Shown here in pieces: positions 30,001 through 33,000 of a stretch of 64,000 nt of DNA (positions within the stretch are counted from its first letter, which is position 1; every line of letters starts with the position of its first letter). A program made the position numbers. Origin of the DNA: Escherichia coli. GTDB lineage: Bacteria > Pseudomonadota > Gammaproteobacteria > Enterobacterales > Enterobacteriaceae. Location of the stretch: assembly GCF_044324785.1 (NCBI RefSeq), contig NZ_CP172127.1. One strand, given 5' to 3'.

Positions 30001-33000
30001 CTGGCAACAGCTAAGTTGGAGAACACCAGCAGGCAAAACTCGATAATCCCATGCTGTTTGGTGCCGAGGAACGATTTCACCAACGAATCAACGTTGCCGC
30101 CTGAGGAGATTATCGCCTTAAAGCTTTCTCGCGGGATATTCCCCATCGTGCAATAGAGCCAGAAGAGATAAATCACCAGCGCCAGCAGCGAACCGAAGAC
30201 CACGCTTTTGATTAGCTTATCTTTGCGTTTGCCATAGCAAATAATCAGGCTGGGAATATTGCCGTGGAAACCAAATGACGCCAGACACACCGGCAAAGCC
30301 ATAAAGATATACGGGAAGTAAGACGTCCCCGCAGTCGTGCTGGTGGAATCGCGCAGAATGGAATAATCGACCTGGAAGAAGAAAGAACCAAACACGATCA
30401 CAAAGGAGATAATCTTCAACCCGAGGAACAATGAGGTAATACGACTGGCGGCTAAAGAGCTTATCCACAATACGCTGGCAACGAAAATGGCTGTGCAGAT
30501 CCCGACAATACGTGGATTAGCGTGATAACCCAAATTCATTGATATCGTTTCACTAATGATCGCACCATTAGCAGAGATATAGGCATAAGTGAGGATATAG
30601 AGAACGAAGGCAACGGTAATACCGCTGATAATGTTCCAGGTGTTACCGATTAAATCTTTGGTGATGGTGTTAAAACTGGAGCCGACGGGATAATTTAAAT
30701 TTGCTTCTAATAACAATAACCCGGAATGAAGCATTGAAAACCAGGCAATGATAAGGATAAAGGCACCCCAGAAAAACCAGGCACCGGCAAGATCAACAGG
30801 TAAAGCAAACATACCTCCACCAATTACTGTACCTGCTATAACCATAACACCCCAAAATGCAGAGTGCTTTTTTTCAGCTTGATCAGTCATGATGCCACCT
30901 TTAGGGAAGGTGCGAACAAGTTCCTGATATGAGATCATCATATTCATCCGGAGCGCATCCCAGAGGGACATCATGAGCCATCAACTCACCTTCGCCGATA
31001 GTGAATTCAGCACTAAGCGCCGTCAGACCCGAAAAGAGATTTTCCTCTCCCGCATGGAGCAGATTCTGCCATGGCAGAATATGACCGCTGTCATCGAGCC
31101 GTTTTATCCCAAGGCGGGCAATGGCCGACGGCCCTATCCGCTGGAGACCATGCTGCGTATTCACTGCATGCAGCATTGGTACAACCTGAGCGACGGTGCC
31201 ATGGAAGATGCCCTGTACGAAATCGCCTCCATGCGCCTGTTTGCCCGATTATCCCTGGATAGCGCCCTGCCGGATCGCACCACCATCATGAATTTCCGCC
31301 ACCTGCTCGAGCAGCATCAACTGGCCCGTCAATTGTTCAAGACCATCAATCGCTGGCTGGCCGAAGCAGGCGTCATGATGACCCAAGGCACTTTGGTGGA
31401 TGCCACCATCATTGAGGCACCCAGCTCTACCAAGAACAAAGAGCAGCAACGCGATCCGGAGATGCATCAGACCAAGAAAGGCAATCAGTGGCACTTTGGC
31501 ATGAAGGCCCACATTGGTGTCGATGCCAAGAGTGGCCTGACCCACAGCCTAGTCACCACCGCGGCCAACGAGCATGACCTCAATCAGCTGGGTAATCTGC
31601 TTCATGGTGAGGAGCAATTTGTCTCAGCCGATGCCGGCTACCAAGGAGCGCCACAGCGCGAGGAGCTGGCCGAGGTGGATGTGGACTGGCTGATCGCCGA
31701 GCGTCCCGGCAAGGTAAAAACCTTGAAGCAGCATCCGCGCAAGAACAAAACGGCCATCAACATCGAATACATGAAAGCCAGCATCCGTGCCAGGGTGGAG
31801 CACCCGTTTCGCATCATCAAGCGGCAGTTCGGCTTCGTGAAAGCCAGATACAAGGGGCTGCTGAAAAACGATAACCAACTGGCGATGTTATTCACCCTGG
31901 CCAACCTGTTTCGGGTGGACCAAATGATACGTCAGGGGAGAGATCTCAGTAAAAACCGGAAATAACGCCAGAAATGGTGGAAAAAATAGCCTAAATAGGC
32001 TGATTCGATGTGTTTGCGGGAAAAAAATCGGCCCAGATCCGCGAAATTTTAATCAGCGAGTCTGCTTGGGAAGAAATGACCTGCTTATTCGCACCTTCCT
32101 TAGAGGAAGGCTATTTTTGTTATTGAGGATGTAGGGTAAGAGAGTGGCTAACATCCTTATAGCCACTCTGTAGTATTAATTAAACTTCTTTCAGTTTTGC
32201 GGTGAAGTGACGCAATACTTTCGGTTCGTAGGTAAAGGTTAACCCTTTAATATTCGCCGCGTTCTCTTTCACATGTTTAAAGGCTTCAATGATGAAGTCC
32301 ATATGTGTTTGAGTATATGTTGCGCGCGGAATGGTTAAACGCAGCAGTTCAGCCGGGCATGGCAGTTGTTTACCGGTTTTCGGATCGCGGCCTAACAGGA
32401 AAGAGCCAATTTCTACCGCACGGATACCGGCGACTTTATACAGCTCGCAGGCCAGCGCCTGTGCCGGGAACTGATCTGCCGGGATATGCGGCAACAGTTT
32501 ACCGGCATCAACGAATGCCGCGTGACCGCCCGCCTGCTGGCAGACAACGCCAATCTCTTCCAGACCATCGACCAGATACTGCACCTGCGCAATACGATAA
32601 GCCAGCCAGTCCAGATTCATGCCGTCATACAGACCTACGGCCAGACGCTCCATCGCGCCGCCTTCCAGGCCGCCATATGTCGGGAAGCCTTCCTGTACCA
32701 CGCAAAGGGTTCTGCACTCGGTGTACACATCAAAGAAGCTGTCGTCTTTCATGCACAGCAAGCCGCCCATCGGCACCATCGCATCTTTCTTGGCGGACAT
32801 CGCCAGCATATCGGCATATTTGTAGGTTTCGCGGGTGATCTGCTCGATGGTCCAGTCTTTATATTCTGCTTCACGCTGCTTGATGAAATAGGCGTTTTCA
32901 GCAAAGCGTGCGGAGTCCATTACCACCGGAATATCGTATTTCTTCGCGATGCTGTACATCGCTTTTAAGTTTGCCAGTGAAACCGGCTGACCGCCTGCGG

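Follow-up and report, generated by a model that had tools for sequence, protein, structure and literature searches.

In Escherichia coli K-12 W3110, in DH1 and in laboratory-evolved lines, IS5 insertions have been described in the tna operon that affect tnaB, a gene normally expressed from the 3.1-kb tnaCAB transcript (PMC7186457). In W3110 these insertions are located within tnaB and in the stretch that separates tnaC from tnaA (PMC2072959), and tnaAB::IS mutants increase during experimental evolution, where such insertions are selected (PMC3203608). A further well-studied group comprises the operons glpFK, fucAO, bglGFB and flhDC, which are activated by IS5 at a single preferred tetranucleotide beside the operon, a hot-spot behaviour that is well described (PMC5493358, PMC11894529). 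In the literature searched for IS5, ISKpn26 or insH together with tnaB, the only cases were those of W3110 and of laboratory evolution, and none concerned the site between tnaA and tnaB considered here.

Here we analysed 64,000 nucleotides of an E. coli genome (contig NZ_CP172127.1, assembly GCF_044324785.1), referred to as the window in the following, in which a complete IS5-family element separates tnaA from tnaB. The best overall explanation, to which we assign a probability of roughly 70%, is a recent insertion of an active ISKpn26-type element at a recurrent site, by which tnaB expression would be reduced through polarity.

Structure, origin and type of the element

The insertion sequence spans positions 30905..32099 on the + strand (1195 bp, boundaries read from the sequence) and is the only ISKpn26-type copy in the window. 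Its length of ~1.2 kb and its imperfect inverted repeats of ~16 bp starting with GGAAGGTGCG are those of the IS5 family. The left repeat (IRL, GGAAGGTGCGAACAAG) occupies 30905..30920 and the right repeat (IRR, CTTATTCGCACCTTCC) 32084..32099, both given on the + strand, and IRL is identical to the reverse complement of IRR at 15 of 16 positions (GGAAGGTGCGAACAAG versus GGAAGGTGCGAATAAG). Both flanks carry the 4-bp target duplication TTAG, which agrees with the YTAR consensus, at 30901..30904 (CTAA on the tna strand) and at 32100..32103. The transposase gene is located on the + strand and tnaAB on the − strand, so that the two are oppositely oriented.

All genes of the operon are intact. The 471-aa tnaA is encoded at 32180..33595 (−, stop codon 32182-32180) and the 24-codon leader peptide gene tnaC at 33816..33890 (−, coordinates transferred without a mismatch from the public contig L030). 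The 415-aa tnaB lies at 29643..30890 (−) in a flank identical to that contig, in which a 415-aa Trp_Tyr_perm gene is called. The insertion damaged neither tnaA nor the ribosome-binding site or start codon of tnaB. The Shine-Dalgarno sequence AAGGTGG is retained directly beside the element at 30895-30901, its first A being the last base of the left duplication, and the distance from the end of the element to the tnaB ATG (30890-30888, minus strand) is 14 nt including one TTAG copy. The hairpin of the tnaA spacer is also still present at about 32130-32165. As a side observation, the tnaB reading frame remains open into the element, which could mislead annotators.

Contig L030 (GCA_044153325.1), which was reached via a 723-aa start variant of a ShET2-like ORF, is unoccupied at this position, where it has one TTAG, and agrees with the window without a mismatch for 2.5 kb on the left side and 9 kb on the right side. 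Because this relative is identical over 11.5 kb of flank and lacks the element, the insertion is, judged from this alignment, a recent and simple transposition event. In silico deletion of the element and one TTAG restores a tnaA-tnaB spacer of 90 bp; of the 5426 complete E. coli genomes, 5386 have this spacer. The preliminary description had placed an element at 30905-32099 in this spacer, with insH opposite to tnaAB, and had taken the TTAG duplication as a sign of simple transposition; these statements hold. Among complete genomes the best neighbour is E. coli N3, with 99.4-99.7% identity at window positions 33600-38600 and 15500-24500, while a query spanning the element matched MB22 best (99.4%). 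The tna haplotype of the window is ~2.2% diverged from that of the MB22 group, and owing to this difference the window insertion is, on haplotype evidence, an event separate from the one in that group.

The preliminary description had named the element IS5. This stands at the level of family and isoform and is otherwise imprecise, as the window element shares 99.4% DNA identity with the copy in MB22, labelled in RefSeq as ‘IS5-like element ISKpn26 family’, compared to 90.8% (110 differences) with IS5 of K-12. The latter value lies at the border of the ISfinder isoform criterion. Copies annotated as ISKpn26 by RefSeq/PGAP in MB22, 2017.06.04CC, DLI.5a and TOK-001, which served as the comparison sequences for the assignment, are 99.0-99.6% identical to the window copy (5-11 differences over about 1196 bp). 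They share its inverted repeats, the 4-bp YTAR duplication and the transposase except for the final residues, and in MB22, 2017.06.04CC and DLI.5a also the insertion site and orientation. Canonical K-12 IS5 (insH) resembles the window copy in its length of 1195 bp, the first 12 nt of both inverted repeats, the target consensus, the antisense-ORF layout and a transposase that is about 98% identical, but differs at the DNA level, and PGAP places the window copy in ISKpn26 rather than IS5. By these identities the element is of the ISKpn26 type, which belongs to the IS5 group of the IS5 family, and not canonical IS5.

Its transposase is encoded by a single long ORF of 330 aa at 30973..31965 (+), with precomputed Pfam hits for the DUF772 (PF05598) and DDE_Tnp_1 (PF01609) domains, as expected for a DDE transposase. 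The intact 330-aa InsH ORF of the preliminary description was thus found again, although the usual length for this type is 326 aa. The difference results from a 1-nt deletion near 31935, which makes the window copy 1195 bp long instead of the 1196 bp of the ISKpn26 copies and replaces the last five residues WERSQ by the 9-residue tail GRDLSKNRK. We considered that this deletion had left a dead transposase and rejected the idea, since the identical protein is both widespread and multi-copy: the public collection lists it in 1251 blocks, and one genome (CP080121.1) has at least 8 copies. The 330-aa protein therefore appears to be a propagating isoform, and the element is, also in view of its recent insertion, probably active. 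A 91-aa antisense ORF next to IRL (30901..31176, −) occupies the position of the ins5CB genes known from IS5 (PMC11677980) and would be the counterpart of ins5B or ins5C. It leaves the element through IRL, and its TAA stop codon, supplied by the target duplication, lies 10 nt before the tnaB ATG.

The TTAG site in other E. coli genomes

Of 5426 complete E. coli genomes, 14 have an IS5-family end directly next to this same TTAG. In nine of these carriers the element is complete, both of its junctions are preserved and it is oriented as in the window; in TOK-001 and KCJ3K291, only the junction on the tnaA side is left for this orientation. Complete elements in reverse orientation are present in MB30 and STEC383. 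One reverse junction is left at the site in KCJ3K291, where a reverse IS5 abuts a forward ISKpn26 remnant, and likewise in EC05, next to a deletion. The elements belong to three sequence types, namely ISKpn26, an ISKpn26/IS5 mosaic and true IS5, and are found on different flank haplotypes. True IS5 occupies the site in OV2 and Z1323CEC0002/4, and the copy in OV2, a K-12 laboratory strain, is identical to that of K-12.

Three IS types and two orientations contradict a single ancestral insertion for all 14 carriers. With at least five sequence/orientation classes at one tetranucleotide, the TTAG before tnaB is, as read from these genomes, a recurrent hot spot for IS5-family elements; the tnaA-tnaB spacer contains three YTAR sites, and no other is used. 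An apparent orientation bias, in which the transposase was opposite to tnaAB in all of 22 genomes, proved to be an ascertainment artefact of a co-linear query. Orientation-specific selection was dropped as an explanation after a query with the reversed element had detected the reverse insertions in MB30, STEC383, KCJ3K291 and EC05. In three of the 14 carriers tnaB is damaged beside the element, by a frameshift in NCTC10444 and by adjacent deletions in TOK-001 and EC05. In the window and most other carriers tnaB is intact, with no sign of long-term decay.

Expected effect on tnaB expression

The element separates promoter-proximal tnaA from promoter-distal tnaB within one transcription unit. 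We propose that an active ISKpn26-type element recently transposed into the CTAA directly 5' of the tnaB Shine-Dalgarno sequence, so that the two genes would now be separated by 1.2 kb of IS RNA that is antisense and for the most part untranslated. About 1.2 kb of mostly untranslated RNA after a stop codon is a classic substrate for Rho-dependent polarity. Over its first ~190 nt in the tna-sense direction, the IS RNA is rich in C and poor in G (C/G 1.7-1.9), a composition known from Rho loading sites. Most transcripts that start at the tna promoter, which is controlled by tryptophan and cAMP, would stop short of tnaB. It is plausible that tnaB is in this way uncoupled from the tryptophan-induced transcript.

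Transcripts that read through the element may moreover be translated poorly. Folding of the tna-sense transcript predicts a hairpin at 30895..30911 (−), in which CACCUU of the IS terminus is base-paired with AAGGUG of the tnaB Shine-Dalgarno sequence, and the predicted probability of an unpaired Shine-Dalgarno sequence is 0.05 with the element versus 0.31 for the empty site. The predicted hairpin is only ~1 kcal/mol more stable than the local wild-type structure, and the stability of the 90-nt fold is no greater than that of shuffled sequence. A second hairpin, CCTTCCT-TAG-AGGAAGG followed by CTATTTTTGT, is made up of the IRR end together with the duplication and the adjoining flank at 32094..32120 (+; −9.3 kcal/mol, z = −2.4). 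In this prediction it looks like a terminator for transcripts that exit the element toward tnaA.

The same observations may also be read as a near-neutral insertion, in which transcription through the element in its antisense direction and the preserved start region of tnaB give near-normal TnaB levels, and the site recurs as a harmless preferred target. The undamaged gene, Shine-Dalgarno sequence and start codon are compatible with this, as is the presence of both orientations at the site. Terminator-like sites inside the element on the tna-sense strand are weak, with no strong intrinsic terminator among them, and antisense ORFs, if translated, could partly shield the IS RNA from Rho. In addition, transcription crosses IS5 in the sense direction at fucAO (PMC11894529). 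External transcription can also enter IS5 from the IRR side, where a Ptet promoter altered transposition (PMC11677980), so that some read-through into tnaB is possible. The long, largely untranslated RNA with its C-rich and G-poor entry region, the predicted occlusion of the Shine-Dalgarno sequence and the secondary tnaB lesions in three of 14 carriers nevertheless speak against near-normal expression, and we regard this reading as unlikely.

A more far-reaching idea starts from the target itself. The empty site reads CACCTT-TAG-A-GGAAGG, and the ends of the element read ...CGCACCTTCC and GGAAGGTGCG... It may be speculated that the flanks imitate the element's own abutted ends and thereby make CTAA a true hot spot. 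Every insertion, in either orientation, would then yield a hairpin masking the ribosome-binding site of tnaB, and the result would be a reversible, orientation-independent switch that lowers TnaB and spares tryptophanase and that could be selected in some niches. We consider this rather doubtful. A general rule that targets mimic the IS ends was rejected, as CCT/AGG or GGAAGG flanks occur at none of 15 other IS5/ISKpn26 sites (five in tnaA/tnaB and ten from other loci). The resemblance is thus specific to the tnaB TTAG site and may be a coincidence.

It is very improbable that an outward promoter in the element renders tnaB constitutive and frees it from tryptophan and catabolite control, so that function is gained or rewired. 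IS5 does activate neighbouring operons in several well-studied cases, and translational coupling is conceivable for the antisense ORF that ends shortly before the tnaB start. Known activation, however, requires a transposase gene co-directional with the target (PMC11894529) and an element upstream of the native promoter. In the window the transposase gene (+ strand) and tnaB (− strand) point in opposite directions, and the 14 nt from the end of the element to the ATG are too few to accommodate a hybrid promoter. Pins5A and Pins5CB, the promoters inside IS5, are reported to be nearly inactive or negligible (PMC11677980). A consensus scan that extended up to about 1 kb from IRL on the minus strand revealed no consensus-like outward promoter, and an outward or hybrid promoter was rejected; the occurrence of both orientations at the site likewise argues against orientation-specific activation. 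That the assembly misplaced the element, which is multi-copy in related genomes and belongs to a class of repeats that can misassemble, is hardly credible in view of a perfect 4-bp duplication around an exactly full-length element and of junctions that both recur in 9 to 11 independent complete genomes.

If the polar insertion that we favour acts as proposed, TnaB would fall while tryptophanase production continues, and the strain would be expected to be indole-positive with a weaker low-affinity tryptophan uptake. The phenotype is probably mild, and milder than the preliminary description implied, since a tnaB deletion remains tryptophanase-positive (PMC12962977). Such a deletion lowers indole by ~20% according to Li & Young 2013, as cited in PMC11091664.

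Comparison with described IS5 insertions

The insertion is an ordinary event of a known kind in a well-understood operon, and alleles of the same type are already present in public genomes, where they are annotated without comment. As a standard IS insertion it carries little weight for general biology. It constitutes a polymorphism at strain level by which tryptophan uptake through TnaB may be reduced and indole output changed slightly, and for annotation it implies that the element should be named ISKpn26-type. The recurrence at one tetranucleotide adds a further natural example of IS5 hot spots, and the site could serve as a natural system to study what makes a YTAR site hot.

Like the insertions in W3110, DH1 and the evolved lines, the window insertion involves an IS5-family element and is expected to affect tnaB. 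Those insertions break a coding sequence or the leader, whereas the element in the window is intergenic and leaves every gene intact. With glpFK, fucAO, bglGFB and flhDC it shares the element family and the use of a single preferred tetranucleotide. At these operons, however, the element is inserted upstream of the promoter, with its transposase gene co-directional with the operon in glpFK and fucAO. In the window it lies inside the operon, 14 nt from a start codon and oriented against it, and the expected outcome would be lost expression rather than activation.

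Structure, identity and empty-site allele of the element

The 1195-bp element at 30905-32099 lies between the tnaA stop codon (32182-32180, minus strand) and the tnaB ATG (30890-30888, minus strand). Its ends (GGAAGGTGCGAACAAG and, reverse-complemented, GGAAGGTGCGAATAAG) are identical at 15 of 16 positions and are abutted on both sides by a TTAG target duplication (30901-30904 and 32100-32103), while its 330-aa transposase ORF (30973-31965, plus strand) runs opposite to tnaAB. In these structural points, the window sequence read over 30700-32400 and a scripted boundary test agreed with the preliminary description. 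These coordinates leave 14 nt from the IS end to the tnaB ATG. The tnaB Shine-Dalgarno sequence AAGGTGG (tna strand) is preserved in this gap, and the usual 90-bp tnaA-tnaB spacer is regained once the IS and one TTAG are taken out. The window contains a single copy of the IS. The tnaB frame remains open for 84 nt into the left inverted repeat (IRL), giving a mechanical 443-aa ORF (29643-30974, minus strand) that could mislead gene callers. An antisense ORF adjoining IRL (30901-31176, minus strand) receives its TAA stop from the duplication of the YTAR target, 10 nt before the tnaB ATG.

All IS5-family traits that could be tested were found, namely length, inverted repeats, YTAR duplication, DDE transposase and identity to named copies. 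The original designation as IS5 thus holds at the family or isoform level, but the precise name is ISKpn26 type, since the element differs from the copy in strain MB22 at 7 positions (99.4% identity) and from canonical K-12 IS5 at 110 (90.8%) in DNA alignments. The transposases of the window IS and K-12 IS5 are ~98% identical. When 30500-32500 was compared by megablast with 5426 complete E. coli genomes, the best matches carried the RefSeq label 'IS5-like element ISKpn26 family transposase'. Relative to both the MB22 and the K-12 copy, one T is absent near 31935, which changes the C-terminal WERSQ/H to GRDLSKNRK and gives a protein of 330 instead of 326 aa with the Pfam domains DUF772 and DDE_Tnp_1. 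A dead copy is improbable, as 1251 blocks of the public assembly collection contain this exact protein and it is encoded at eight or more unrelated loci of one chromosome (CP080121.1). In this heavily IS-laden 4.52-Mb chromosome, several copies of the variant (among L018-L025, the loci fetched from it) have non-matching 4-bp flanks, which suggests IS-mediated rearrangements.

Contigs of near-identical strains were reached by exact-sequence look-up of a neighbouring ShET2-like protein. One of them (L030, GCA_044153325.1) carries the empty site ...ATGATGCCACCTTTAGAGGAAGG... and matches the window without a single difference across 2.5 kb on the left of the insertion point and 9 kb on its right; a second (L031) has one mismatch. 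L030 is the closest thing to an isogenic IS-free allele that sequence data allow. The proposed simple transposition with a 4-bp duplication is thereby shown, as is its recent origin. The same comparison shows that the window has intact copies of tnaC, tnaA (471 aa) and tnaB (415 aa).

The ShET2/EspL2-family type III effector-like gene (Pfam Toxin_15; 34275-36461, plus strand; 723-728 aa by choice of start) is located between tnaC and mnmE. This arrangement occurs in 764 of the 5426 complete genomes; in K-12 and MB22, mnmE directly follows tnaC. In the phoU-yieH interval (~16640-23548), EspY4-type effector genes take the place of the bgl operon of K-12; the annotations found elsewhere for the genes of this interval are EspY4, 'type III effector protein' and a pentapeptide-repeat protein. 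NCBIfam gave no match for the two large ORFs of this interval, the arrangement of which is found in 1084/5426 genomes, with E. coli N3 being closest (99.7%). Rfam returned ordinary enterobacterial RNAs only.

Recurrent insertion at the same TTAG

In the first search of the 5426 complete genomes, 22 were listed in which the tnaA-tnaB region holds an IS5-family element co-linear with the window; 15 of these loci were fetched and their IS ends mapped. Forward elements with both junctions intact at the same TTAG were of ISKpn26 type in MB22, 2017.06.04CC, DLI.5a and CUPF09, ISKpn26/IS5 mosaics in NCTC10444 and APEC 102026, and true IS5 in OV2, Z1323CEC0004 and Z1323CEC0002. In TOK-001 (L014), the tnaA-side junction alone is retained, and a deletion extends into tnaB. 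Because this uniform orientation raised the suspicion of ascertainment bias, the IS reversed within the same flanks was used as a second query. The single-orientation pattern proved to be an artefact of the co-linear query, as reverse elements were recovered at the same TTAG: ISKpn26 in MB30 and STEC383, in KCJ3K291 (L028, 1906-3280) an IS5 directly adjoining 180 bp left over from the right end of a forward ISKpn26, and an element with an adjacent deletion into tnaB in EC05 (L029). In both TOK-001 and EC05, the IS-adjacent deletion has removed the tnaB 5' end. Queries of 100 bp detected the tnaB-IRL junction in 9 genomes and the junction of the right inverted repeat (IRR) with the tnaA side in 11. 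Overall, an IS5-family end adjoins this tetranucleotide in 14/5426 genomes, and the spacer is uninterrupted in 5386.

The carriers differ in IS sequence type (three), orientation (two) and flank haplotype (several); the window flanks are ~2.2% diverged from the MB22/OV2 group. Independent events must underlie at least five IS type/orientation classes, and the window insertion must be one more. The IS5 of the K-12 laboratory strain OV2 is identical to the K-12 copies, and this event thus arose in a laboratory lineage. Three YTAR sites occur in the spacer and only this one is in use; the TTAG before tnaB is a recurrent IS5-family hot spot. Other IS5-family insertions in the operon, for example inside tnaB (W3110, NT1N31, LR-64-1, HS30-1, DH1) or at the tnaA 3' end (C1), have a lower per-site frequency. 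In NCTC10444, APEC 102026 and C1 (L007 1906-3100, L009 1906-3100 and L006 2053-3247), the left ~60% of the IS is ISKpn26-like and the right ~40% IS5-like, which by sequence comparison indicates recombination between the two isoforms. In CUPF09 (L013), ISEcp1-blaCTX-M-55 is inserted just past the IS on the tnaA side. The tna operon is often targeted by IS5 in K-12 laboratory lines: W3110 (L003, 5185 onward) has a second IS5 between tnaC and tnaA besides the one inside tnaB, and W3110-P and its derivatives (H49-H55) are arranged differently again, their tnaB containing a reverse-orientation IS5.

On the plus strand, the sequence of the empty site is CACCTT-TAG-A-GGAAGG, and its flanks resemble the IS termini set end to end (...CGCACCTTCC and GGAAGGTGCG...). 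Insertion is therefore predicted to create a 6-7-bp hairpin at each junction (30894-30904 and 32100-32110), one covering the tnaB Shine-Dalgarno sequence and the other terminator-like and facing the tnaA 3' end. No similar flanks were seen at fifteen other IS5/ISKpn26 sites, which rules out flank mimicry as a general IS5 rule. The resemblance, noticed post hoc, may serve as a lead on site choice rather than an explanation. IS5 hot spots have been attributed to destabilised AT-rich DNA (SIDD) (PMC5493358).

Predicted consequences for tnaB

The preliminary description proposed that tnaB should be uncoupled from the tryptophan-induced transcript unless the IS provides an outward promoter. Normally, tnaB is made from a 3.1-kb tnaCAB transcript, and a 1.9-kb tnaC-tnaA RNA is also present (PMC7186457). 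In the window, RNA polymerase leaving tnaA would enter the IS at IRR and transcribe the transposase gene in antisense. Over its first ~190 nt, the resulting tna-sense IS RNA is non-coding, rich in C and poor in G (C/G 1.7-1.9, G 14-15%), a composition associated with Rho loading, although only as a heuristic. Furthermore, CACCUU of the IS terminus is predicted to pair with the tnaB Shine-Dalgarno AAGGUG in both MFE and centroid structures. The predicted mean unpaired probability of the Shine-Dalgarno sequence is 0.31 for the empty allele but drops to 0.05 when the IS is present and to 0.06 when the IS is reversed, the latter two being close because the first 12 nt are common to both termini. 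The predicted local hairpin is only ~1 kcal/mol more stable than in the wild-type, and the effect may therefore be small. Taking promoter, polarity and translation points together, we favour a reading in which TnaB is reduced and tryptophanase is normal. Circumstantial support comes from secondary tnaB lesions in 3/14 carriers and from tnaAB IS insertions that become fixed during experimental evolution (PMC3203608).

A mild phenotype is expected. Deletion of tnaB leaves cells tryptophanase-positive (PMC12962977), and a finding of ~20% less indole is attributed to Li & Young 2013 by an article citing them (PMC11091664). TnaB is described as the main transporter under tna-inducing conditions and as a component of the positive feedback that acts on induction of the operon (PMC6443796), so that the clearest effect is expected on induction kinetics and growth on tryptophan.

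A near-neutral insertion, with read-through across the IS into tnaB, is unlikely but has precedent, as sense-direction transcription across IS5 and entry of transcription from the IRR side are both known (PMC11894529, PMC11677980); the composition of the tna-sense RNA and the tnaB lesions point rather to reduced TnaB. Constitutive tnaB expression from an outward IS promoter is very improbable. The promoter scan found no consensus-like promoter facing tnaB near IRL, a hybrid promoter would not fit into the 14-nt gap, and negligible activity is reported for the internal promoters Pins5A and Pins5CB (PMC11677980). Activation of glpFK and fucAO by IS5 requires a transposase gene co-directional with the operon (PMC11894529), whereas the gene in the window has the opposite orientation. 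An assembly artefact can practically be dismissed, as the duplication is perfect and the same junctions occur in many complete genomes.

We found no paper on this intergenic tnaA-tnaB site; the W3110 insertions elsewhere in the tna operon are already published (PMC2072959). As a textbook case of intergenic IS insertion within an operon, the event is already known in kind, the sole modestly new point being its recurrence at the tnaA-tnaB TTAG.
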